Assembly: GCF_003010495.1 (NCBI RefSeq)
Contig: NZ_CP027570.1
Span: 2,280,001 to 2,312,000, forward strand
Source: Megasphaera elsdenii DSM 20460
GTDB lineage: Bacteria > Bacillota > Negativicutes > Veillonellales > Megasphaeraceae
Length of the DNA stretch: 32,000 bases
Reading direction: 5' to 3'
Numbering within the stretch: position 1 is the stretch's first letter; each line of letters starts with the position of its first letter. The notes below the pieces were generated by a model that saw only the letters and a program-made list of their open reading frames with translations, did no database searches and was not told where the DNA came from. Below are positions 4,133 through 16,181 of this stretch, piece by piece. The position numbers and the translations under genes were made by a program.

Positions 4133-5254
4133 TTACAAAATCGAATCGAGTTTCTTCATGGCTTCCCGATTACGCTTATCTGTAATGGTATCGTAAATAT
4201 TAGCCGTCGTCGCAATCGAAGAATGACCTAGCCGTTTGGACACGTAGTCGAGCTCGATATTATTTTCCAACATCATCGTGGCATGGGTATGGCGGAAAGA
4301 ATGGAAACTGCCGCCACCAAATTCCTTTTTGCACCACATATTGAAATAGCGCATATCATTGCTGTTCATCGGACGGCCGTCTTCGCGGGTACAGACAAAA
4401 TCGCTTTCGACGTAATCGTCACCGTAGAGACGGTGGTTCTTGGCCTGCTGGGCCTTATGGCGGACCAGGGCTTTGTATAAAGTCTCATTAAAGGGAATCG
4501 TCCGGACCGATGACTTGGTCTTGGGCGTCGCCTTGCAAACAGGGATGCCTTTTTTATCATATAAGGTACTATCAACGGAAATCGTTCGGTTTTCCATGTC
4601 TATATGAGACCATTGCAAGGCCAGACATTCCCCGACACGAAGGCCTGTACAATAGGCAATCATGCAGGGAGCGTAATATTTATGCCCCAACGGAAAGGCG
4701 TGGAAAATAATCTGTATCTGCTGATGCGAAAAGATGACCGGCTTTTTCCGGGGAACGTCAAATTTCGGCATCTTGACATTGGCCATGGGATTCGTTTCGA
4801 TGTACTGGCGGTTGGAAACGGCCCAGCGCATGGCATCATTGAAGACCGTGAAAATCGACTTGACCGTCGAGCGGGAATAACCATCCTGCTTCAAGCTGTT
4901 GATCCAGTCCTGGATTTCCGCCGTCGTCAGCGCATCCAAAGCTTCATTCCCGAAACGGGCACCAATATGCCATTTAATGATTCCCGCATAGGAATCGTAC
5001 GTATTGGGCCCTAAATTGATACGCACATCTTTTTCCAGCCATTCCAATAAAAAATCCATCATCTTTATGACTGGCTTTTCCGAAACCGCTGCTTCATCGA
5101 GAGCCTTCATGGCCTGCCGATAGGCTTTAGCGGCCTGTGCATACGAAGTACCGCCGACGCGTTCTTCCCGCAGCCTGCCCTGACCATCTTTCGTCGGGAC
5201 TTCAATCGTATAATACCATTTCTTGCCTCGTTTTCGTAAATACATATGCGGCAC
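4133..5254 (-). CDS. Tyrosine site-specific recombinase / phage-type integrase
   Basis: The C-terminal catalytic signature is HSFRHTHATMML...LGHSSIATTANIYDT (HxxR, H, Y). The N-terminus (KKWYYTIEV) resembles an arm-binding domain. The second ATG at 5245 has better AGGAGG spacing. Confidence 0.9.
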   Translation of the reverse strand: MPHMYLRKRGKKWYYTIEVPTKDGQGRLREERVGGTSYAQAAKAYRQAMKALDEAAVSEKPVIKMMDFLLEWLEKDVRINLGPNTYDSYAGIIKWHIGARFGNEALDALTTAEIQDWINSLKQDGYSRSTVKSIFTVFNDAMRWAVSNRQYIETNPMANVKMPKFDVPRKKPVIFSHQQIQIIFHAFPLGHKYYAPCMIAYCTGLRVGECLALQWSHIDMENRTISVDSTLYDKKGIPVCKATPKTKSSVRTIPFNETLYKALVRHKAQQAKNHRLYGDDYVESDFVCTREDGRPMNSNDMRYFNMWCKKEFGGGSFHSFRHTHATMMLENNIELDYVSKRLGHSSIATTANIYDTITDKRNREAMKKLDSIL

Positions 5255-5268
5255 CTCCTTTGTTTACT

Positions 5269-5297
5269 ATTGTACTATGAGAAAAGACAAGATGCAA
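5269..5297 (-). promoter_or_regulatory. Candidate promoter of the integrase gene
   Basis: On the minus strand: TTGCAT (5297-5292), a 17-nt spacer, then TACAAT (5274-5269), just upstream of the integrase RBS. Confidence 0.5.
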
Positions 5298-5418
5298 CAA
5301 ATGTTCCTGCAAAATTTGCCGATTTAAGGAAATTTAAACAGGCACTCCATGTAATAACTCACGGAATAGTTAAATTCTCCTTATAAAGGCATTTACGGAA
5401 ATTATGTAAAAATCCGGC

Positions 5419-5477
5419 AAAAAAAAGAAACTATGTTCGACGAGGCATTCGCCCCCCCCATCATCGAACATAGTTTC
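5419..5477 (-). terminator. Intrinsic terminator (minus strand)
   Basis: 14-bp stem GAAACTATGTTCGA (5427-5440) / TCGAACATAGTTTC (5464-5477). On the minus strand it is followed by T8 (the A8 at 5419-5426 on the + strand). The loop contains a C8 tract. Confidence 0.65.
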
Positions 5478-5514
5478 TAATTGCTTTATTTGGCCGATAT
5501 GGTAAAATAAAAAC

Positions 5515-5601
5515 AGAGATAGTCCGATGGCGGAACATCGGCTCTCCTCTGAATGTTGTAACTGAAGAAGGCCGTGTACCGCAAAGGTATGCGGTTTTTT
5601 T
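5515..5601 (+). ncRNA. Candidate small RNA convergent with the toxin mRNA (possible type I antitoxin)
   Basis: Promoter: TTGCTT (5481-5486), 16 nt, then TGGTAAAAT as an extended -10 (5503-5508). Internal hairpin CCGATG/CATCGG. The 3' hairpin ACCGCA/TGCGGT (5578-5595) is followed by T7. There is no ORF. Confidence 0.35.
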
Positions 5602-5612
5602 CAGTTCATAAA

Positions 5613-5693
5613 TTATTTCTTACTAGCTGAAATAACCAGCACAATAAGCGTAGCAAAAGCTATCATCAAGGATAATGCTTCGTATACACTCAT
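5613..5693 (-). CDS. 26-aa hydrophobic peptide, holin-like type I toxin family
   Basis: Not in the ORF track. It translates as MSVYEALSLMIAFATLIVLVISASKK. A GGGGTGA RBS lies 5 nt upstream. The M-S-x-[YF]-E-A-L-x-L-M start, single TM helix and KK tail match my recollection of the 'putative holin-like toxin' peptides of Firmicutes. Confidence 0.55.
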   Translation of the reverse strand: MSVYEALSLMIAFATLIVLVISASKK

Positions 5694-5787
5694 GCCGATC
5701 ACCCCGCTTTCGCGAGGAAAACCGAATACATCGAACTATCTCATGAGAATAAGTTCATCATGTTTTTAGACAGACTTCAAGAAAGGG

Positions 5788-5840
5788 TCGCCAGCTCGTG
5801 TTAGTCTTAAGGGGATTTAACATGAGCTGGCGGCTTTTTT
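5788..5840 (+). terminator. Hairpin plus T-tract just downstream of the 5859 stop (stronger on the + strand, possibly bidirectional)
   Basis: Arms GTCGCCAGCTCGTG (5788-5801) / CATGAGCTGGCGGC (5821-5834). The two non-Watson-Crick positions are G-U in + strand RNA and C-A in minus strand RNA. T6 at 5835-5840. Confidence 0.5.
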
Positions 5841-5858
5841 ATACTTGAACGAACGTTT

Positions 5859-6899
5859 TCAATGGATTTTTTGCTGAATGTAAAATAACTTATCCAGCTG
5901 GTCTGTCGGCAGCACGTTCAGATGGGAAATGTCGTTTCGTGCCTGGTAGGCGCACTGGAACCATTCGTCGTCTTTTTCTTGGAAGAAGAGGCCCTGCCCC
6001 CGCAGGTAGTGCTGCAGGTGGCGGAGTTCCAGGTCCGTAGGCCGGTTCAGTTCTTTTCCGTATTCGTCCTGCTGGGGCAGTATCTGCTGTATCATCGTTT
6101 CGTATTTCCGGACCAGGTAACGGCGGATATCTTCGAGAATAGGTAAGACGTGCTGCATCTGTGTTTCCAGGAGGATTGGCACCAGGTCGACCGATAGCTT
6201 TTGTTCCTGTATGACTGTTTCCGGGTGGAAGTACAGGTCCTGCCGGGCCAGGGCCAGGCAGAGGCGGCCATCCATGCCGGCGATTTTGGCGATGATGTCG
6301 GCGGCATAGTACTGCTGACACAGGTTGAGTTCTGTATCGCGCAGACAGGTCATGGCGAAATACTGGATGTCATAATGATAGAGGTAGTGCTTGCGGTCCA
6401 GGAGGTGTACACCGGCCATCTTGTCCCAGGCTGCCAGGACCGGAGAAGGGGCCCGGAAGATCCAGGCACTCCCCTCCCGGCCGGCCAAGCGGCCTACGGC
6501 AGCGGCAGCCTGGGCCAGCCAGGGACAGTCACCGGAAGCGGAATCGATAAAAAAGACGTAATGCTGCAGCCCGGACTGACGGATCAGGCTGGTCAGCGGC
6601 GATTCATCTAAGGGGTCGAAGCGGAACTGGGGTGCATATTGCTGGGCGATGAAGGCTGTAAAGGCATTGACATCGTCAAAATCATCGGCAGCGATGCGCA
6701 CGTAATGGCAGTCACAGTCATAGCTGGAAATGCGGTCTTTCAGGGCTTCCGTGAACACGTCATCATCTAAGTCGGCATCCATGGCCAGGCACTGCTGGTC
6801 CAGGATGGCCCTGGCGATTTCCTTGACATATTTATGAGGTCCGGCGACTTCACGCCACCAGATATTGCCGGCTCCTTCATTCCATTCACGCGTTTCCAT
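5859..6899 (-). CDS. Hypothetical protein with a C-terminal HEPN-type RNxxxH motif; partner of the giant NTPase
   Basis: 346 aa. The start ATG overlaps the upstream gene's end by 14 nt. The C-terminus is ...QCAYQARNDISHLNVLPTDQLDKLFYIQQKIH, with R321-N-D-I-S-H326 encoded at 5922-5939. I recognise nothing in the N-terminal part. Confidence 0.8.
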   Translation of the reverse strand: METREWNEGAGNIWWREVAGPHKYVKEIARAILDQQCLAMDADLDDDVFTEALKDRISSYDCDCHYVRIAADDFDDVNAFTAFIAQQYAPQFRFDPLDESPLTSLIRQSGLQHYVFFIDSASGDCPWLAQAAAAVGRLAGREGSAWIFRAPSPVLAAWDKMAGVHLLDRKHYLYHYDIQYFAMTCLRDTELNLCQQYYAADIIAKIAGMDGRLCLALARQDLYFHPETVIQEQKLSVDLVPILLETQMQHVLPILEDIRRYLVRKYETMIQQILPQQDEYGKELNRPTDLELRHLQHYLRGQGLFFQEKDDEWFQCAYQARNDISHLNVLPTDQLDKLFYIQQKIH

Positions 6900-9800
6900 A
6901 TTCTCTCAGCTTCCTTTCGATATCGTCCCAATCGCCCATCATCATGTAGAAGTTGTAGCGGTTGAAGACATAGCCCTTCCCGCCTTCTTCCTGATGGAGG
7001 ATGTTCAAATCGGTCATTTCATCAATCAGGGCCTGGAGCTGTTCATCTCGCATGTCGGCGATTTTATGGACTTCGTAAGCGGCGCACACATCCCGGATGG
7101 TGTCGAGGGTGACCGGCACGACCCGCTGCTGTTCATACTGGTACTGATAGGCGACGACGAGGGCGATGATGGCATAGTAATTGTCCGCATCCAGTTCCAG
7201 GGTAATCATGAACAGGTCATCGATTTTCTGCCGGAATTTTTCGTCCTTCAGCAAGTCTTTCAAGTAGCTTTCATCCAATGGATAAGGCGGCGTATTGCAG
7301 TCCGTGAAGAGCTGGTTCTTGTATTGGCTGCGGATACTTTCGACGAGGTTCTTGCCGTAATACTGGATCAGTCCCGGGAAGTAATTAGTCTGGGCCAGGA
7401 TAGTGCTGATGATATCCTGGTTGCGGATTTCAAAACCCAGGTAGCTGAGCGGTTTTAAGAGGAGTTCGTTCGCTTCCAGGTAGCCGAAGGGCTTGACGAC
7501 CAGGTGGTCCAGCTGGGCGAAGACGGTATTATCGCCTAACTGTCTCCGGTCGAAGCGGATGACGTTGTGCAGGCCGGCAAAGATGAATTTGAAATGGCCC
7601 GGCACGTAGTCGCGGATGTCCTTCAGCACTTCAATAGGACGGTTCTGCTGAGCCGCCGCATCGACGAGGAAATGGTCCGATTCGTCATAGAGGATCATGA
7701 GCTTGTCGATGTTTTTCTTTCCTTGTGACCACAGGTCTTTCAAGCTCCGCCCCAGTTCATCCCACGTCCGGACATGTTTGTTCAGGATGCCTGCCCGCCG
7801 GAGTTCGTCGCACGTATCTCCTAAGACAGCGTCGCCATCTTTGTTCTTGATGTCGAGGTAAATGGCATAGTTCCCCTGCTCCGGATGGTGGACCAGGTAG
7901 CGGGTCTGCCGCAAGAGGGCACTCTTGCCCAGCTGTCGGCCGCCATAGACGAAGACCGGGCCGGCCATGTCCTGGATGGCTGCCAATTCAGTCGACCGGC
8001 CAATGAACATTTCCGGCGGAATCCGGGCTTCACTGATGAAGGGCTGGACATAGGCAAAGGGCAAGGCCAGGGCCAGCAGCTTATCGTTGCGGTCGTTCTT
8101 TTCAAAATGCGTCAGGTACAGGGCCAGGACCCGGTCCAGGACCAAGACGTTCTGCATATCCAGGTTGGTCTTCATGAGTCTGGCCAATTCGCGCCGATCC
8201 GAAAGGGTCAGGGCGGAGTCGAGGAAAAAGAGGGTCCCCTTTTCTTTGGCTACACTGAGCTGGGATATTTCATTGACGATGCTCTGCGGCGTGTGGCTGC
8301 CCCGGAAGAGGACGACATTCAGCCCATTGTAGTAGGCGCCGCTGCCAAAGACGGCAAAGGGATGGTGGAACCGGGGCGGATTCTTTTCGAACTTCACACT
8401 GTAACAGGTACAATTCTTTTCGGCCCGGCTGACCTGGATATCGGCGATGTTCCCATATCCCAGGCCCTCTAACAAGGGCTTCATCGATTTGCCGGGGGCG
8501 CTGGATTCAGCCGACCAGGCTTCGACGAAGTCGAGGCCGTCCTTTTCCTTGCGGTTCAGGCGGTCATGGACCCGTTTATTGCGGATTCCCGGCTTCTGGT
8601 CATAAATATTCTTTAGAGATAATTTTTTATTCTTGTTGCACAAATCGAATCCGGCCTGGTACTGTTCCAGGAATTGCGTGAACGTCTTCAGGCCGAAATC
8701 ACCTTGATAATTCAGGATGAGCTTCATTTCACGAGGGCTCTTGTGAGCACAGCGGTGCAGGTAGTCTTCGACGATGGTCAGGTTGCCATGGTCGAGCCAG
8801 GCCTGAATCGGGTCCAGCCAGGACAAGTCTTCCTCCTGGATTTGGGAGCGGAACTGGTCCAATTCGCGCTGCACGCTCTGACGGCGCGGTTCCGCTTCTT
8901 CATCGATGTGTTTCAGGCAGCTCTGGAGCAAGTCCTTGTACAGGGCAAAGTTCTCAGTCTTTTTGAAGTGGCTTCGGGCAGTATCGGCTACGGAAAAATA
9001 ATGTTCCATCCGTTCTTTGCCGATGATTTTTCCATAGTTGGCCGCCAGTTCGACGTCGCTCCGGTAATTTTCCGTATCGGCTGCGGCATACTGCAACCCG
9101 TACTGCAAGACCGTATCCCGCTTCCCGACGCGCTTTACCGCATCATCCAGGCCGGCGATTTGTCTGGCTATGCCCAAATTATAAACACGGACAGCCTGAT
9201 GATAGGCGTCCTGCCAGGAAAGGTCCGCCGTTTGGGACAAGCGTGCCTGGATATACCGCTGCAAGCGCGGGACGAGCGGGTATTCCCCGTCGTAGTCTGG
9301 CGTCAAGTCGGGCAGATAATCCGAATCCAGTTCAAAGGCGTTGGCTTTTAGTAAAGGGGCATAGTAAGGTTCGCCGCTGGAACAGCCCTGGAACTGCCGG
9401 GTCAAGTCGTTCAATAAGGCCTGAAGCACGGCTTTCGCCAGCTCATCCATCACGGTATCTACGGTCTGTCCGGCCAGCTCCGCTTGGGCCTGTTGTAACA
9501 GATCCAACCCTTTTTGCCGCTGCTGCGCCAAGACGTCCGGTGAAAGGCCATGCTGGTTCTGCTCATGCTGTGCCGCCTGTTTGGCCAGGATATAGCGGCA
9601 AAGGATGAGCACGGATTTCTTGATTAATTTGATTTGCTGCGTCGCATCTTTTCCCAGGAAGCGTTCGTTCTTTCGTTCGCCCACGGGAATACTGAACCAA
9701 ACGCCGTCCAAATATTCTTTTACTTTATTTTCATTGACCAGACGGTCTTCAATCCGATTTACTGGCGTATCCGCTGTCAAGGGCGTGTTAAGGAAGGTAT

Positions 9801-12207
9801 TACAAAAATCGCTGAGTTCCGTAAGGTCGAAGGCATCGACGTCTTTAAAATATGGGACGACCTGCCCATGACCACCGTATAACTGGGAGCGCAGGCCCCG
9901 CAGCCGGGGATGGGGCGACGGTTTCCGTTCATCCATGCACAGGGCCTGGTACTGTTCGGCTACGGCCTGACGGGCCCCATCGAGATCGACAGGCTGGCGG
10001 TCCGATGCGTGCTGCTGCAGACCATAGGCCAAGGACATACCTTGGGTATCGGCAAAGTTCTTGCATAAGGATACAAATTGTTTCAACGCCGGAATGGCTG
10101 TAAAGGCTTCATTCGGTTCTTCATTGATGCGGATCCACGTCTTGCTCAGCAAGTAGCCTTTCGGTTCAGCCGGCGCAAAAAAGGCGCGGACCATGGCGGC
10201 AGCATTCAGGACATCCCGGGACTGGCCCATTTCGATGGCCGTCAGGGAAATCATGGAGTCCCAGAAATCGAAGCCGTCGGAATGGGCAGCCGGGTCATAC
10301 AGCGGATCGCCGAGGATATAGGCGATTTCATCAGATAAAACTTCCCAATCCGCTTCGTCAGGACCAGCCGTGCTGGCCAGGGCATGGAGCCAGAAACTGC
10401 CTTCGGCCCGATGGCCTTTCTGGAGCAGCTGGCAGAAGGACTGCAAAGCGTCGGCCCTATCCGTGACTGCATCAGCCGTCGAGTCAGGAACCGCTTCTTC
10501 TGACGGTACCGATTCTGGCTGGGCTTCTTCCGTTTTTTCTGTTTCTTCCGGTTCTTCTGGTACCCCAGGTGCATCGGATTCATCTGGCCCATCCAGGTTC
10601 GGGACTTCCGCGACATGTTCATTGAGGAACAGCATTTTCTGCGTCTTTTCCCGGATATCCAGGCAATCGGGGATATCCACTTCGGCTTTCTTCACAGCTA
10701 CGGCAAAGAGGTCATCAGCCGTCAGGACTTCGCCTTTTGACGAAAAGAGAAAATCCCCCTTTTCATCGGGATGGGTCAAGGCCACATAGATATCTTCGGT
10801 CCCGAAGCGGGTCATCCAGGGCTTGGCGTATTCCCGGGAATCGGTCAGAAGCAGCTTGACAGCCGTCGATTTCGCCACGTACTGGAAGTCTTTCTGATCG
10901 GCTTCCAGCTCGGCTTCCGAAAAGGGTGGCCTGATGAGGAGGTATGCCGGCAGGAAGGTTCCATCATCGACCACCATGGACTTCCCAAAAATCACATAGC
11001 CAAAAAAGGCTTGGCGCTGAGCCCTGAAAAAGGCTATTTCATAGGGACTGTGATCCAATACCTGAAGGACGAAGCGCTCCATTTCATATAAGCGGCTGAA
11101 GCAGGTCCAGTCCGTCATTCTTGTAAAATAAGGGATATTGAAATATTTGCGCACTTTGTCGCGCTTCAAGACGTCATACGTCTCTGGCGTGAGCCGGTAA
11201 AAGGGCTGCGTTCCCCACTGATATTTGGCGGCCAGGCCCCAGTCCAAGAAGCGGCTGCGGATGGCTTGGAGACTGTTTTCAAACGTATCGGCGCCCATTC
11301 TTTTCTGCTGTTCCTGCAAGCCCCTCGACAGCCGGGCTTCTTCCCCTTCCCCGACAAAATCATGGAAACAGAGGGCCATGAGCCAGAAGATAGCCATCCC
11401 TTCGGTCTGTTCAGCGAACTGCTGGATGTCATGGGTAAAGGATTTAGCCCCTTTCAATTTAGCACGCAAGGGCTTCTGTTGAACCAAAGTCATGCCATCA
11501 GGCATAGCCGGCGCTGAAGTCGCCTTTTCAAGGGCCGGTACGGGTGCTGGTTCCGGTTCCGGAGTGAAAGCCGGTGTAGGCGGTACTTTCGCTGCGGTTT
11601 CCTCGGGAGCCGCAGCCGACTGTCCTTCTGTCAAGCGGAAATCATGATAGATGCAGGCCAGGCTGATATCGCCGCCGAACTGGCTGCGCAGGGAATCGGC
11701 CAGGTCCCGGTCCAAGAGGGGTCCGTCGAAGCGGACGGCTTCCAGGAAGCGGATATATTTTTCGGCCTGTTCCGATAGTTCGTCGAAGGTCAGGGACAGG
11801 CCCAACAAGGCCTTGACATCGCCCTGCATCTGGCGGAACTGGCTGGCTATGGACTCATCAGTTCCCACATAGACCACGTCGAATATGCCTTCCAATTGAT
11901 GTACCATGGCTTTCATGGCCTCGCGGTTTTCCTGTTCCCGATGCCAAGCTTCGATTCGTTCCCCTAATTCATCGGCTTTATCGGCCGTCGCAATCTGGAC
12001 CTGTGCCAGGGCCTGACATAGCGCATCCTGGGCTTGGCTCAGTGCTTGCAAATCGTCCCGGACGGCTTGCTGCTGACGTTCCGGAAACCACAATCCATTA
12101 TCCAAGGCTACACATAACCCCTGAATATGCTGCCGGCTGTCTTTACGGACAACCATCATATGCTCGTAGAGTTCTTTAAGCTTTTCATATTCATCCATTC
12201 CGGTCAT
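6886..12207 (-). CDS. Giant (1773 aa) protein with a C-terminal STAND/ORC-like P-loop NTPase domain
   Basis: Walker A is GGRQLGKS (residues 1422-1429, nt 7921-7944), preceded by FIGRSTEL. Walker B is LMILYDESD (residues 1503-1511, nt 7675-7701). Two Pro/Glu-rich linkers lie at nt 11500-11619 and 10462-10605. The ATG at 12198 has better RBS spacing than the one at 12207. Confidence 0.85.
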   Translation of the reverse strand: MTGMDEYEKLKELYEHMMVVRKDSRQHIQGLCVALDNGLWFPERQQQAVRDDLQALSQAQDALCQALAQVQIATADKADELGERIEAWHREQENREAMKAMVHQLEGIFDVVYVGTDESIASQFRQMQGDVKALLGLSLTFDELSEQAEKYIRFLEAVRFDGPLLDRDLADSLRSQFGGDISLACIYHDFRLTEGQSAAAPEETAAKVPPTPAFTPEPEPAPVPALEKATSAPAMPDGMTLVQQKPLRAKLKGAKSFTHDIQQFAEQTEGMAIFWLMALCFHDFVGEGEEARLSRGLQEQQKRMGADTFENSLQAIRSRFLDWGLAAKYQWGTQPFYRLTPETYDVLKRDKVRKYFNIPYFTRMTDWTCFSRLYEMERFVLQVLDHSPYEIAFFRAQRQAFFGYVIFGKSMVVDDGTFLPAYLLIRPPFSEAELEADQKDFQYVAKSTAVKLLLTDSREYAKPWMTRFGTEDIYVALTHPDEKGDFLFSSKGEVLTADDLFAVAVKKAEVDIPDCLDIREKTQKMLFLNEHVAEVPNLDGPDESDAPGVPEEPEETEKTEEAQPESVPSEEAVPDSTADAVTDRADALQSFCQLLQKGHRAEGSFWLHALASTAGPDEADWEVLSDEIAYILGDPLYDPAAHSDGFDFWDSMISLTAIEMGQSRDVLNAAAMVRAFFAPAEPKGYLLSKTWIRINEEPNEAFTAIPALKQFVSLCKNFADTQGMSLAYGLQQHASDRQPVDLDGARQAVAEQYQALCMDERKPSPHPRLRGLRSQLYGGHGQVVPYFKDVDAFDLTELSDFCNTFLNTPLTADTPVNRIEDRLVNENKVKEYLDGVWFSIPVGERKNERFLGKDATQQIKLIKKSVLILCRYILAKQAAQHEQNQHGLSPDVLAQQRQKGLDLLQQAQAELAGQTVDTVMDELAKAVLQALLNDLTRQFQGCSSGEPYYAPLLKANAFELDSDYLPDLTPDYDGEYPLVPRLQRYIQARLSQTADLSWQDAYHQAVRVYNLGIARQIAGLDDAVKRVGKRDTVLQYGLQYAAADTENYRSDVELAANYGKIIGKERMEHYFSVADTARSHFKKTENFALYKDLLQSCLKHIDEEAEPRRQSVQRELDQFRSQIQEEDLSWLDPIQAWLDHGNLTIVEDYLHRCAHKSPREMKLILNYQGDFGLKTFTQFLEQYQAGFDLCNKNKKLSLKNIYDQKPGIRNKRVHDRLNRKEKDGLDFVEAWSAESSAPGKSMKPLLEGLGYGNIADIQVSRAEKNCTCYSVKFEKNPPRFHHPFAVFGSGAYYNGLNVVLFRGSHTPQSIVNEISQLSVAKEKGTLFFLDSALTLSDRRELARLMKTNLDMQNVLVLDRVLALYLTHFEKNDRNDKLLALALPFAYVQPFISEARIPPEMFIGRSTELAAIQDMAGPVFVYGGRQLGKSALLRQTRYLVHHPEQGNYAIYLDIKNKDGDAVLGDTCDELRRAGILNKHVRTWDELGRSLKDLWSQGKKNIDKLMILYDESDHFLVDAAAQQNRPIEVLKDIRDYVPGHFKFIFAGLHNVIRFDRRQLGDNTVFAQLDHLVVKPFGYLEANELLLKPLSYLGFEIRNQDIISTILAQTNYFPGLIQYYGKNLVESIRSQYKNQLFTDCNTPPYPLDESYLKDLLKDEKFRQKIDDLFMITLELDADNYYAIIALVVAYQYQYEQQRVVPVTLDTIRDVCAAYEVHKIADMRDEQLQALIDEMTDLNILHQEEGGKGYVFNRYNFYMMMGDWDDIERKLREYGNA

Positions 12208-12366: not shown

Positions 12367-13032
12367 GTGAAGAAACTGACTTATGAAAATATTGCCCATG
12401 CGAAAGAGTTGAATGTCTATTTAGAACAGGGGAACCGGGTCCTCGATGCCTTGGGGTATACGGACCATTCGCAAAAACATACGGCCAAAGTGGCTGTCAC
12501 GGCCGGTAAAATTCTAAAGAAGCTCGGCTATGACGCCCACACGGTAGAACTCGTGCGCATCGCGGGGTATATGCATGACCTGGGGAACAGCATCAACCGC
12601 GTGGATCATGCCCATACGGGGGCTCTCATGGCCTTTCATTTCCTGCGCGACTGGGGCGCGCCGCCAGAAGATATTGCGGCCATCATCTCAGCGATCGGTC
12701 AGCACGATGAACGAAGCGGCATCGCTTTCGACCCCATTTCGGCAGCCTTAATCTTGGCCGACAAGAGCGACGTCCGCCGGGACCGCGTCCGCAACACCGT
12801 ACCGGAAACTTTTGACAAGCACGACCGCGTCAATTATGCGGCTTTGTCTTCAAAGCTCCACGTCGATACGCACAAGAAAGTCATTACTTTGAACATCGAG
12901 CTCGATGAATCGATTTGTTCTATGATTGATTATTTTGAAATCTTTTCCCAGCGCATGCTCATGTGCAAGCGGGCTGCCGAAGTCCTGGACCTGCGCTTCA
13001 AACTGGTAGCCAATGGCAATAAAATCGCATGA
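12367..13032 (+). CDS. HD-domain metal-dependent phosphohydrolase
   Basis: 221 aa with a GTG start 9 nt after AAAGGAA. Motifs: HSQKH, GYMHDLGN, HAHTG, GQHDE. An extended -10, TGCTATACT, lies at 12325-12333. Confidence 0.7.
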   Translation: MKKLTYENIAHAKELNVYLEQGNRVLDALGYTDHSQKHTAKVAVTAGKILKKLGYDAHTVELVRIAGYMHDLGNSINRVDHAHTGALMAFHFLRDWGAPPEDIAAIISAIGQHDERSGIAFDPISAALILADKSDVRRDRVRNTVPETFDKHDRVNYAALSSKLHVDTHKKVITLNIELDESICSMIDYFEIFSQRMLMCKRAAEVLDLRFKLVANGNKIA

Positions 13033-13194: not shown

Positions 13195-13752
13195 ATGCTA
13201 CGTTATGGAAAAGGAACACTTCTCATTACGGTCCTGACCGGACTGCTGGCCCTGTCCCTGCTGACGGCAGGATGCGGCAGTACGACACAGACTAAGAGTA
13301 CTGCCGTTTCAGTCAAGGCCATGAAAGTTCTCCAGCAGGATACGGCTGTGAGCCACGACTATTCAGGGCAGATCAAATCGACTAACGCCGTCACGATCAA
13401 GCCCCGCGTCTCCGGGGAAATCGTGGAGAAATACTTCACGTCTGGCGCACCCGTCGAAAAGGGACAGGCCTTATATAAAATCGACGACCGCCAATATGAA
13501 TCGGAAGTCCTCTCGGCTAAATCGAATGTCGATAAGGCCCGGACGACGCTCAATAACTCCCTCGTCGACTTGAACCGCTATCAGCAGTTGGCAGCATCCG
13601 GCGCCGTAGCGGAACAGACCTTGACCAACCAGCAAGCCACGGTAGACAGCAATCAGTCGAGTTACGACGATGCCAATGCCCTCTTGCAGAAGGCCCAGGA
13701 AAATTTAGACGATACGATCATCCGGTCGCCGAATTCGGCAATATTATCTTGA
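13195..13752 (+). pseudogene. RND efflux periplasmic adaptor (MFP), truncated to about half length
   Basis: Lipoprotein signal with the LTAGC lipobox, and a coiled-coil MFP N-terminal half. Reading stops after ...DDTIIRSP-NSAILS, where the sequence switches into RND permease sequence in another frame. Confidence 0.7.
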
Positions 13753-16181
13753 AATCGGCTTCAAACGGCCAATTCGTCTACCTCAAGGATGTAGCCAACA
13801 TCCAGACGGGGACGCAGAACGAAAGCAGCAATTCCAAGATCAACGGGAAGACCGGTATCGGCTTCGGTATCCAGCTCTCCAGTGACGCCAATGCCTTAGA
13901 TACGATTACGGAAGTCAAGAAGGTCCTGGACCAGGCTAAGGAAACATTCCCGCCTGACCTGGATTATACCATCGTCATGGACAATACGAATTTCATCAAT
14001 GCCTCGATTAACGAAGTCAAAGATACTTTCGTCGAATCGCTGCTCCTGGTCATCCTCGTCGTCTTCGTCTTTCTGCAGAAATGGCGGACGACGCTCATCC
14101 CGGTCCTGGCCGTTCCCGTTTCTATCGTCGGTACTTTTGCTTCTTTCAAAATCCTCGATTTCACCATCAATACGCTGACCCTGTTCGCCATGGTCTTGGC
14201 CATCGGCCTGGTCGTCGACGACGCCATCGTCGTCATAGAAAATGTCGAAGAGCATATGTCCAAGGATAAACTGTCTTCTAAGGATGCGACGGAAGCAGCC
14301 ATGAAAGAAGTCCAAGGGCCCATCATCGCTACGACAGCCGTCTTGGCTTCGATTTTCATTCCCGTCGCTTTCATCGGCGGTGTCACTGGCGTCCTGTACA
14401 AGCAGTTCGCCGTGACCATCACCATTTCCGTCGTCATCTCGGCCTTCGTCGCCCTGACCTTGACGCCAGCCTTATGCGGTGTCCTTCTGAAGCCCGGCGA
14501 CAAGGCCATCCAGGCCGGGCCGCTGGGGGCCTTCTTCCGCGGGTTCAACCGGGCTTTCGACCATTTCAAGGACCGCTACACGGGGAAAGTCGGCTGGATG
14601 ATCCGTCATCTGAAATATGCCGCTGTCTTCCTCATCCTGGTCACGGGCCTCATGGGCATCTGCTACCAGGTCCTGCCGTCGACGTTCGTCCCCGATGAAG
14701 ACCAGGGGTACTTCATGGCCAGCATCACCATGCCTGAAGGGACTTCCTTGAATCAGACCATCAAGACCGTCGACGCGGCAGCGGAAGAGACGCGGCAGAT
14801 TCCCGGCGTCAAAGATGTCATGACCCACGCCGGCGGCTCTACGTCGAATACGGGCAATCTCTATGTCGCGCTGGAAAATTGGGATGACCGCCAATCGAAC
14901 GACCTCAGCGCCGAATCGATTATTGCCAAATTCAATAAGACCGTCGTTCCCAAGCATCCCGAAGCCCGTGTAGCGGCTTTTAATCCGTCATCCCTGCCCG
15001 GCATGGGCCAGGAAGGCGGCTGGACCATGCAGCTCATGGATAATACGGGCCTGTCCGATACGGAACTGGGAAACGCAGCCAACCAGGTAGTCGCCGCCTG
15101 CTCCCAGCGGCCGGAATTATCCGGTGTCCGCACGAGTTACGCCACCAATACGCCGAGCGTCGCTTATACGGTAGACCGCGAAAAAATTAAGAACCTGGGC
15201 ATTGAACTGTCTGACGTTTTTACAGCGCTCCAGACCAACTTCGGCGGTTCGTCGGTCAATGACTTCACCCAGTTCGGCCGGTCGTACAAGGTCATCGTCC
15301 AGGCCGACACATCGTACCGTTCTCAGGCAGACAGCTTGAAGTTCATTTCCGTCAAGTCGTCGTCAGGGAAAATGGTTCCCCTCGATACGCTGCTGACCAG
15401 TTCGATGACCACCGGGCCGTCGTCAATCACCCGGTTTAATGGCGTCCGCAGCGTCACCATCCAAGGCAGTGCTGCCAGCGGCTACAGCTCTGGCGAAGCC
15501 ATGGCAGCGGCCGAAGAAGCGGCCAAGAGCGTCATGCCGACGGGGATGACCATCGAATGGTCTGGCCAGAGCCGCGAAGAAAGCACCTCGTCCAGTTCAA
15601 CGACAAAAATTCTGATCATGGCTCTGGTCTTTGCCTTTCTCTGCCTGGCAGCCCTTTATGAAAGCTGGTCCATGCCGTTCGCCGTCTTATTCACCGTACC
15701 GACGGGTATCTTTGGAGCCGTCGGCTCAGAATACATCATCCGCCAGCTGGCGACTTTGTTCAATGCCAACACGAGCGGCTTCTTGAACAGCGTCTACATG
15801 CAAATCGGCGTCATCATGATCATCGGCTTGGCAGCTAAGAACGCCATCCTCATCGTCGAATTCGCCAAAGAGCGCGTCGACAAGGGCGTCGACCCGATGG
15901 AAGCCGTCGTCATCGCATCCAAGCTGCGCCTGCGGCCAATCCTCATGACAGCCTTTACGGCCATCATCGGCTGCCTGCCCCTGGCCTTTGCCAGCGGTGC
16001 CGGTGCTGGAGCCCGCTGCGGCATGGGCGTCGCCGTCGTCGGCGGCATGACCTTCGCTACCCTTTGCGGGTTGCTCCTCATCCCGGCGTTTTGCATCATT
16101 TCCGAAAAAATGGCCCGCAACTTCTGGAAAGCCACGGGCCTGAAGCGAATCAAATTCAAATACCGCATGTTGCGGCGGTGA
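13731..16181 (+). pseudogene. AcrB-type RND permease lacking its N-terminal ~215-235 residues
   Basis: The frame translation from 13731, EFGNIILKSASNGQFVYLKDVANIQTG...ANALDT..., matches the AcrB region STEEFGKILLK...RDVAKIELG as I recall it. Later motifs (LAIGLVVDDAIVVIENVE, TM7-12) are intact. The only in-frame start is a TTG at 13749, with no TM1. Confidence 0.7.

Follow-up and report, generated by a model that had tools for sequence, protein, structure and literature searches.

Introduction

In the PrrC/RloC anticodon nucleases, the HEPN-STAND fusions and the HEPN-DUF499 ATPases of Hma/BREX-related systems, a HEPN domain and a nucleoside triphosphatase (NTPase) are fused to one another, the HEPN domain lying N-terminal to a STAND (signal transduction ATPases with numerous domains) or DUF499 ATPase and, in PrrC, C-terminal to an ABC-type ATPase. 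Such NTPase-coupled HEPN endoRNases serve as suicide or backup effectors (PMC3710099; PMC12839542). The Hma/BREX-related systems possess an N-terminal HEPN domain fused to a DUF499 STAND/ORC-like ATPase, accompanied by N6-methyltransferase and helicase-nuclease partners (PMC12839542). Conflict systems are also known in which an active Orc/Cdc6 ATPase is accompanied by a degenerate, catalytically compromised copy encoded beside it in immunity-linked mobile neighbourhoods; there the second copy keeps its Walker A motif and the genes are linked to KAP NTPases, restriction endonucleases or HerA/FtsK (PMC10853773). The present analysis concerns two adjacent minus-strand genes in a 32,000-nucleotide stretch of the Megasphaera elsdenii DSM 20460 genome (NZ_CP027570.1, positions 2,280,001 to 2,312,000; the whole stretch is referred to as the window). 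They encode a very large protein, the giant, which ends in an ORC/Cdc6-like ATPase, and a smaller protein, the partner, which ends in a candidate HEPN domain. Most probably the pair is a hitherto uncharacterised system of anti-phage defence or conflict. We put at about one half the probability of the more specific reading, namely an ATP-gated HEPN RNase system of abortive infection that combines an active with a degenerate AAA+ protein.

The gene pair

The two genes and the parts of their products are as follows; all lie on the minus strand, and positions are those of the window.

6886..12207, minus: giant gene, an open reading frame (ORF) of 1773 amino acids (aa)
5859..6899, minus: partner gene, an ORF of 346 aa
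6886..6899, minus: 14-nt overlap of the giant stop codon with the partner start codon, ATGGAAACGCGTGA on the coding strand
10489..12207, minus: giant aa 1-573, N-terminal variable region with a helical/coiled segment, a Pro-rich linker, a ~300-aa domain and an acidic linker
8464..10488, minus: giant aa 574-1248, all-alpha region in the AlphaFold2 model, candidate sensor or scaffold
8113..8448, minus: giant aa 1254-1365, beta-hairpin and small alpha/beta domain preceding the ATPase (AlphaFold2 secondary structure)
6889..8010, minus: giant aa 1400-1773, ORC/Cdc6-ATPase_2-type AAA+ ATPase with lid and C-terminal winged helix (Foldseek, Pfam)
at giant aa 1401, minus: FIGRSTEL (translation)
7921..7944, minus: giant aa 1422-1429, Walker A GGRQLGKS, including K1428 (translation)
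7675..7701, minus: giant aa 1503-1511, Walker B LMILYDESD, including D1508 and E1509 (translation)
6204..6857, minus: partner aa 15-232, degenerate AAA+-like module with an alpha/beta base and a four-helix lid, no Walker A
5862..6185, minus: partner aa 239-346, C-terminal helical domain, HEPN candidate (AlphaFold2 model, invariant residues)
6015..6029, minus: partner ELRHL including E291, the invariant acidic residue upstream of the Rx4H motif
5922..5939, minus: partner aa 321-326, RNDISH, the Rx4H motif with R321, N322 and H326 (translation)

Translation reproduces both ORFs, their 14-nt overlap and the FIGRSTEL, Walker A, Walker B and RNDISH motifs exactly where the initial annotation of this DNA, made from its letters and ORFs, had placed them. 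The AGGAG Shine-Dalgarno sequence of the giant gene directly touches the ATG at 12207, and its spacing is normal for the ATG 9 nt downstream (M4, 12198), which is also the position at which a homologue with 56% identity to the giant (P0019) begins. Both observations favour M4, which is probably the true start, so the giant protein may be 1770 aa long; the numbering used here is that of the longer ORF. Numerous homologues exist for both proteins, and the two genes are therefore not chance ORFs; the locus is also present, with 87% protein identity, in an uncultured Megasphaera metagenome-assembled genome.

Conservation of the pair

When the last 604 residues of the giant were used in an exhaustive phmmer search, a large family emerged that a word-indexed search had overlooked. 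It numbers 2715 representative clusters at E ≤ 1e-3, of which 1492 reach E ≤ 1e-30. The best 150 of these clusters are mostly 1750-2250 aa long and carry the module at the extreme C-terminus. The word-indexed search gave homologues of the giant at 98-56% identity, and the cluster 98% identical to the window giant holds 2110 sequences. A total of 98 loci, drawn from NCBI, ENA, Logan, JGI and IMG/VR assemblies, were examined. In 96 of the 97 loci with room for it, the partner is the next gene downstream and shares the strand of the giant; co-expression, which the initial annotation had deduced from the overlap, is therefore likely. The sole true exception is a distant relative of 1466 aa (L009). 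In six loci no partner was called at the contig end; five of these carry a truncated partner and the sixth (L063) has too little sequence. Spacing at the junction varies between -50 and +21 nt and has modes at -4, -14, +2 and +12; an outlier of +577 nt (L025) is a split-ORF artefact.

These loci fall into 37 clusters at 80% identity, across which the pairing holds. Pairwise identities of the giant C-terminus and of the partner are correlated (r = 0.91; 0 of 2000 Mantel permutations as high), which shows that the two proteins co-evolve. Among homologues the two genes are strictly syntenic. The partner evolves faster, with a mean identity of 28% as against 45% for the giant C-terminus. Many Firmicutes lineages of gut and rumen carry the pair, and its presence on the Salinibacter ruber plasmid pSR118 (L101:5980-12899) shows that its range reaches beyond Firmicutes. 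In this plasmid a 1927-aa "ATP-binding protein" is followed after 3 nt by a 377-aa hypothetical protein with the hallmarks of the partner (IWAAQ...FP, E, RNRIAH), and the two are flanked by IS110, other transposases and a DUF3320 protein. Megablast revealed no match for the pair in E. coli genomes.

ATPase module and variable region of the giant

The sole Pfam match of the window giant is ATPase_2 (PF01637; E 0.0015, 18.8 bits versus a gathering cut-off of 33.2). Among 25 family members ATPase_2 is matched by 14 (best E 3.6e-8) and AAA_22 by 15 (best E 2.6e-9); since the window protein scores below threshold while members of its family match, it is a divergent relative of ATPase_2 and not a curated member. 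NCBIfam gave no match for either the giant or the partner, and PADLOC-DB v2.0.0 gave ZorA noise alone for the giant (E 0.048). Searches of the sequences of solved structures, made with single sequences and with family profiles, found nothing significant for either protein.

A 50-sequence alignment was used to model aa 574-1773 of the giant with AlphaFold2 (mc832fd2ca085), resulting in a predicted local distance difference test score (pLDDT) of 86.8 and a predicted template modelling score (pTM) of 0.71. The model contains, in order, some 675 helical residues, the beta-hairpin and small alpha/beta domain, the AAA+ base, the lid and the winged helix. Helices run throughout the first part (model residues 1-675), where the pLDDT is mostly above 80; no PDB counterpart of this region was found among the Foldseek top 50. 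Foldseek against the PDB placed 2qen, the Walker ATPase PABY2304 of Pyrococcus abyssi and archetype of ATPase_2, first (E 9.9e-07, TMt 0.64), followed by archaeal Orc1/Cdc6 proteins (2qby_A, 1fnn, 1w5t) and eukaryotic ORC subunits; NB-ARC proteins are low in the ranking, and TnsC is also among the matches. In 25 family members the Walker A residues G1422, G1423, R1424, Q1425, G1427 and K1428 and the Walker B residues D1508, E1509 and D1511 are invariant, as are many residues outside these motifs. The Walker residues are likewise invariant in the 50-member alignment, in which the sensor-1 region is FAGLHN (1543-1548) and R1551 is near-invariant. The invariance of both motifs, together with the match to the 2qen and Orc1/Cdc6 folds, predicts an active ATPase.

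STAND proteins reportedly comprise, after Leipe et al. in 2004, an N-terminal effector, a central NTPase with a helical or winged-helix arm and C-terminal superstructure-forming sensor repeats. The C-terminal NTPase of the giant had been annotated as STAND, ORC-Cdc6 or Arch_ATPase-like with a probable winged-helix tail. The ORC-Cdc6/Arch_ATPase likeness and the tail are borne out, 2qen being the top Foldseek match, whereas the STAND label fails on architecture because the ATPase-winged-helix module forms the extreme C-terminus and nothing follows it; AAA_16 is matched weakly, in nine of the 25 members.

The alpha/beta domain in front of the ATPase is also conserved, with the motifs HPxAxFGS, LSxRRxLA and VLDRV and the invariant residues H1282, G1288, R1338 and D1358. 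Identity across the family is 33-44% in the ATPase module, 15-21% in the helical region, which retains scattered conserved motifs despite its low identity, and 10-16% in the first 600 aa. This gradient suggests that the variable part may act as a sensor. The N-terminal domain also varies by strain-level insertions and deletions: an in-frame segment of 249 nt (window 10950-11198, giant aa ~337-419) is missing from one relative (L004; P0005, 1687 aa), and other homologues at 97-98% identity are 1645 to 1690 aa long. Within it, aa ~281-364 gave a profile match to ribosomal protein eS25 at E 0.04, which is a hint only; eS25 is presumably a winged-helix protein.

Fold and conserved motif of the partner

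The AlphaFold2 model of the partner (m7d6bf94871bc; pLDDT 85.7, above 90 in the motif region) reveals an alpha/beta domain (aa 15-170), a four-helix unit (aa 175-232) and a helical C-terminal domain (aa 239-345) with helices at 239-273, 292-300, 308-325 and 332-345. Foldseek with the whole protein matched ORC/Cdc6, clamp loader/RFC, RuvB and plant NB-ARC proteins in the PDB (E 2e-5 to 1e-3) and RFC/HolB clamp loaders in BFVD, with TM-scores to these AAA+ matches of about 0.3-0.37; a profile search of the partner against the PDB gave no match. The partner family was assembled by profile search, initially as 24 and later as 69 distinct sequences with 20-30% identity, homologues being found down to 22%. 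The strict Walker A pattern GxxxxGK[ST] is absent in 24 of 24 partners, a looser pattern giving one chance match, and the Walker B position is not conserved. The AAA+ matches, the missing Walker A and the unconserved Walker B together identify the first two thirds of the partner as a degenerate AAA+ fold, which is probably non-catalytic.

The C-terminal domain is conserved in a different manner. Across 40 diverse partners, with an overall identity of ~20-30%, a Q, a P, E291, R321 and H326 never vary and N322 is near-invariant. All 69 unique partners possess Rx4H and 68 possess RN.[IVLA][SAT]H, the residue after R being N in 68 and D in one; ELRH is present in 18 of the 69, only its E being universal. 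The HEPN superfamily is defined by Rx4-6H, with a polar residue (N/D/H) right after R, and an acidic residue in helix-2 (PMC3710099). In the model R321-H326 closes helix 308-325 before the last helix (332-345) and E291 caps helix 292-300, which, at the level of predicted secondary structure, appears to fit that definition. The persistence of E, R and H, and nearly of N, in such divergent sequences suggests catalysis more than packing.

Profile comparisons of the same 40 partners gave weak Pfam matches, the commonest being HEPN_Swt1 (6/40, best E 0.0055), with HEPN_RiboL-PSP in one; DUF6548 (4/40), a family of unknown function, and DUF4145 (2/40) are the only other families to recur. A PADLOC model of a Cas13a HEPN piece was matched below threshold by five of 13 partners (best E 0.0033; window partner E 0.022), and in an hhalign comparison with a bona fide Swt1-type HEPN domain the motif is in register, the alignment not being significant. 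These signals are weak, and on the whole they point toward HEPN. From motif and position we consider it likely that aa 239-346 belong to this superfamily. The claim that the partner ends in an R-N-x-x-x-H motif placed as in HEPN RNases has thus stood, the motif being universal (69/69); a HEPN family match is found at sub-threshold level only, and the larger part of the protein has turned out to be a degenerate AAA+ domain.

The same fold matches permit two other explanations. It is unlikely, in our judgement, that the pair is a conflict system whose RNxxxH domain is not an RNase, the partner being an adaptor or regulatory pseudo-ATPase whose C-terminal bundle is a collar or an oligomerisation domain. 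The effector would then lie elsewhere, for example in the alpha/beta domain of the giant (aa 1254-1365), in the giant N-terminus or in the helicases of the four-gene variants described below. Such an arrangement would agree with whole-partner Foldseek alignments of 340-400 columns to three-domain clamp-loader subunits, with the lack of a significant HEPN profile match, with the invariant polar residues H1282, R1338 and D1358 of a pre-ATPase domain that travels with the ATPase into other architectures, and with the operonic position of a UvrD-like helicase and a ~300-aa protein upstream of the pair in five of the 37 clusters. However, the invariant E, R and H (plus Q and P) with the near-invariant N suggest catalysis over packing, the N after R and the motif position match the HEPN definition, and at TM-scores as low as 0.3-0.37 the third domain need not be equivalent to that of clamp loaders.

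A second explanation, that the two proteins are a DNA-transaction machine of a mobile element or of the host, an initiator- or loader-like AAA+ pair working in replication, partition or transposition targeting (cf. ORC/Cdc6, clamp loaders, TnsC, TniB), appears very improbable. Both proteins do match ORC/Cdc6 and clamp-loader folds, one family member matches TniB, TnsC is among the Foldseek matches and an integrase gene adjoins. Yet genes for replication, partition or transposases show no consistent linkage to the pair, the locus is fixed and syntenic in Megasphaera but has other flanks in other lineages, a site such as the invariant Rx4H/E plays no part in known loaders, and a hypervariable N-terminal part of ~1200 aa is atypical of housekeeping loaders.

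Genomic neighbourhood

The flanks of the pair differ between clusters and several loci hold defence genes, which is the pattern expected of a conflict system and is suggestive of one. In a census of 37 non-redundant loci, the 99 neighbours with a length of 150 aa or more included six UvrD-like superfamily 1 (SF1) helicases, three integrases, three ResIII proteins, two C5 methylases and two AbiEii-type AAA_21 proteins. A type I HsdR gene is directly upstream of the pair in two loci (L002, L003). Elsewhere the flanks contain a DrmD-like SNF2 helicase with an N-terminal Swt1-type HEPN domain together with a TmtA-like protein (L036), a MkoA-like helicase (L048) and the PADLOC candidate PDC-S68 at E = 0 (L067). 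Upstream of the giant gene, a UvrD-like SF1 helicase of 590-880 aa occupies position -2 on the same strand in five of the 37 clusters, and a same-strand protein of ~300 aa with no Pfam or PADLOC match occupies position -1 in at least three. The loci concerned are:

L038:4362-7854
L044:94-3619
L059
L060
L067:8-2665
L072
also L065 and L081

The shared strand of the helicase gene, the ~300-aa gene and the pair suggests a four-gene variant of the system.

In the window itself the following gene adjoins the partner:

4133..5254, minus: tyrosine recombinase (Phage_integrase, E 6.9e-27)

Both this integrase and the type I toxin-like ORF listed beside the pair in the initial annotation are present, the latter as a 26-aa ORF matched in 288 Firmicutes plasmids. 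The whole region is syntenic across Megasphaera relatives, so the integrase is not evidence of recent mobility; no tRNA genes are present in the window, and the relatives show conserved synteny and not insertion. A gathering-threshold Rfam scan of the whole window gave 0 matches, and a promoter/terminator scan performed no better than on shuffled sequences.

These surroundings also bear on the question of whether the pair serves immunity at all. It could instead be an addiction or toxin-antitoxin-like module, or a stress/growth switch, in which the giant silences a HEPN toxin and the cassette persists because losing it is harmful; we regard this as quite unlikely. HEPN toxins are common in toxin-antitoxin modules (PMC3710099; PMC13000451), the pair is tightly coupled in translation and is found on plasmids and megaplasmids, a holin-like toxin ORF and an integrase adjoin it, and many loci have housekeeping neighbours. 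An antitoxin of ~1800 aa whose active ATPase is conserved and whose N-terminus is hypervariable would nevertheless be far bigger than a simple antitoxin needs to be. In addition, the partner changes more rapidly than the ATPase (mean identity of 28% against 45%) and several loci abut restriction or helicase defence genes. Toxin-antitoxin and abortive-infection roles are, moreover, not mutually exclusive.

Several other features of the window were recorded. The 26-aa ORF is hydrophobic (5613-5693, minus; MSVYEALSLMIAFATLIVLVISASKK), and its plasmid matches, in Lactococcus, Listeria and Enterococcus, have 60-80% identity; among the matches listed, most are annotated "putative holin-like toxin." The intergenic region 5255-5858 contains plus-strand hairpins, each with a T-run after it, at 5578-5595 and about 5790-5850 that could be part of an antisense antitoxin RNA. 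Divergent from the giant gene, an HD-domain protein is encoded at 12367-13032 on the plus strand (Pfam HD, E 1.4e-7; weak similarity to Cas3-HD and RNase Y HD). Because window positions 12420-12762 are missing in two relatives (L004, L020), of which L004 has only an 81-aa gene called there, the HD gene is dispensable for the pair. At 13195-16181 an HlyD-like membrane-fusion gene (185 aa) abuts an AcrB-like RND pump gene (810 aa), both of them truncated, the AcrB-like Pfam match beginning at profile position 247. Four relatives (L001, L020, L028, L032) carry about 1.3-1.4 kb extra exactly at the junction of the two genes (13732-13741), from which it follows that the window strain has a deletion inactivating this efflux operon.

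Distant relatives of the ATPase module

More distant relatives share with the giant only the module composed of the alpha/beta domain, the ATPase_2-like AAA+ domain and the winged helix. It is conserved in distant Actinobacteria and in relatives fused to pPIWI-RE. In one of the latter, P0023 (L100:4298-13576, 3092 aa), the module is fused C-terminally to a pPIWI-RE Argonaute-like protein. Plasmids of Bradyrhizobium, Azospirillum and Microvirga also carry it, in genes annotated "RNaseH domain-containing protein" that, judged by this annotation, are probably fusions of the same type. In other distant relatives the module stands beside very large helicases. The Streptomyces locus L099:1-14234 (P0020) has a 2077-aa relative before which are encoded a helicase exceeding 1950 aa (DEAD, Helicase_C_2, Cas3-like_C_2) and a 778-aa unknown protein, with an ADP-ribosylglycohydrolase-domain protein, RAMA and insertion sequence elements nearby; this looks like a different, larger conflict system with the same ATPase module. 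Taken together, this distribution suggests that the module is a portable switch.

The Actinobacteria and pPIWI-RE relatives have a C-terminal extension of ~330 aa, which was considered as a possible fused partner. This idea was rejected, as hmmsearch and hhalign found no similarity, and it is further excluded by the Salinibacter giant, which has an extension of ~360 aa beyond the ATPase module besides its separate partner.

Proposed mechanism and significance

The observations above can be combined into a model of the pair as an ATP-gated abortive-infection system. The fast-evolving N-terminal and helical two thirds of the giant would recognise an invader-derived cue, to which the C-terminal ORC/Cdc6-ATPase_2 module, with its small alpha/beta domain, would respond by an ATP-dependent change of conformation or oligomeric state. 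The partner may dock on the AAA+ module of the giant through its dead AAA+ domain, in the way inactive subunits do in clamp loaders and ORC, and its C-terminal domain (E291, R321-N-x3-H326) would be a metal-independent RNase of HEPN type. On activation two HEPN domains would come together, probably by dimerisation, whereupon cellular or phage RNA would be cut and the infected cell would stop growing. The gene pair, its folds, invariant motifs, synteny and co-evolution are observations; docking of the two proteins, cleavage of RNA, the nature of the trigger and protection against phage are inferred.

Several results weigh against this model. The best E-value of any HEPN family profile for the partner is 0.003-0.006, which is not significant, and the top 50 Foldseek matches of the whole partner are AAA+ proteins only, none of them HEPN, from which it follows that its C-terminal domain could be a collar like that of clamp loaders and not a HEPN bundle. 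With regard to immunity in general, the remaining neighbours in the census are mostly housekeeping genes, and the Megasphaera locus, integrase included, is stably syntenic at 85-98% identity and not obviously mobile. In phage collections the pair is almost absent: tblastn found no match in GenBank phages, and IMG/VR has six loci only. This is neutral for defence, but prophage hotspots lend the model no support.

Were the ATP-gated model true, the ORC/Cdc6-like switch would be portable and common to the pair and to the pPIWI-RE Argonaute-like systems. A wider proposal, which we put forward tentatively and with considerable doubt, is that of a novel class of immune machine, an initiator/loader-type AAA+ pair in which a dead clamp-loader-like subunit delivers a HEPN RNase. 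The ATPase of the giant would assemble with the pseudo-ATPase partner on an invader nucleic acid or protein sensed by a variable part of ~1400 residues, this ATP-driven assembly would set two HEPN domains side by side, and the same switch would govern pPIWI-RE and helicase systems in other phyla, so that it would be a general activation module of prokaryotic immunity. The abundance of the giant in human-gut Megasphaera, as reflected in the 2110-sequence cluster, means that the system could shape phage-host dynamics in the microbiome and the host range available to phage therapy. Candidate NTPase-nuclease systems are numerous; among them this pair is a strong, widespread and testable candidate.

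Comparison with known systems

The pair is widespread, yet it has neither a name nor a curated model nor a solved relative. When both proteins and 25 family members were scanned, no PADLOC, NCBIfam or Pfam model named the pair and no known defence system was matched significantly, the PADLOC results for the 25 members being PDC-S01 in two (8e-4) and mad8 in one. A full-text literature search likewise found no description of the pair, and the opinion first formed from the sequence, that it matches no named system, is upheld.

Its closest relatives by fold are ATPase_2 and Orc1/Cdc6, with which the last ~375 residues of the giant share the AAA+ base, lid and winged helix, the Walker A and B motifs being intact. 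Unlike in these proteins, the module stands at the end of an unrelated part of ~1400 residues, is preceded by an alpha/beta domain and is tied to a partner gene. By comparison with the Orc/Cdc6 pair systems, the second copy has here lost its P-loop and carries an Rx4H domain, whereas the active copy is embedded in the giant. The inactive subunits of clamp loaders (E. coli delta and delta-prime, RFC) resemble the partner in having an AAA+ base, a lid and a helical third domain with the nucleotide motifs lost, and Foldseek matches of the partner include 8gj0_D, 1sxj_A and viral RFC/HolB. The likeness is limited, however, as the TM-scores are only ~0.3-0.37, sequence similarity is absent, there is no sliding clamp or polymerase context, and the invariant E...RNxxxH site of the partner's third domain is not found in clamp loaders.

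PrrC/RloC, the HEPN-STAND fusions and HEPN-DUF499 proteins have in common with the pair the coupling of a P-loop/AAA+ NTPase to an Rx4-6H HEPN-type endoRNase, which in the present case remains a candidate; the difference is that the candidate HEPN domain is on a separate protein, where it is fused to a dead AAA+ fold. The window pair differs from Hma/BREX in that it has no match to DUF499, HmaC or BrxC and no obligatory helicase, and in that its locus contains no methyltransferase, methylases accounting for two of the 99 neighbours in the census. The pPIWI-RE systems share the C-terminal module alone, at 25-30% identity, whereas the window giant has no PIWI, MID or RNaseH domains. We found no known kind of system that combines a giant bearing a C-terminal ATPase with a separate pseudo-AAA+ protein carrying an Rx4H domain. 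If the pair does act as an ATP-gated HEPN system, it would represent a new architecture of abortive infection, one in which the effector rides on a dead AAA+ subunit.

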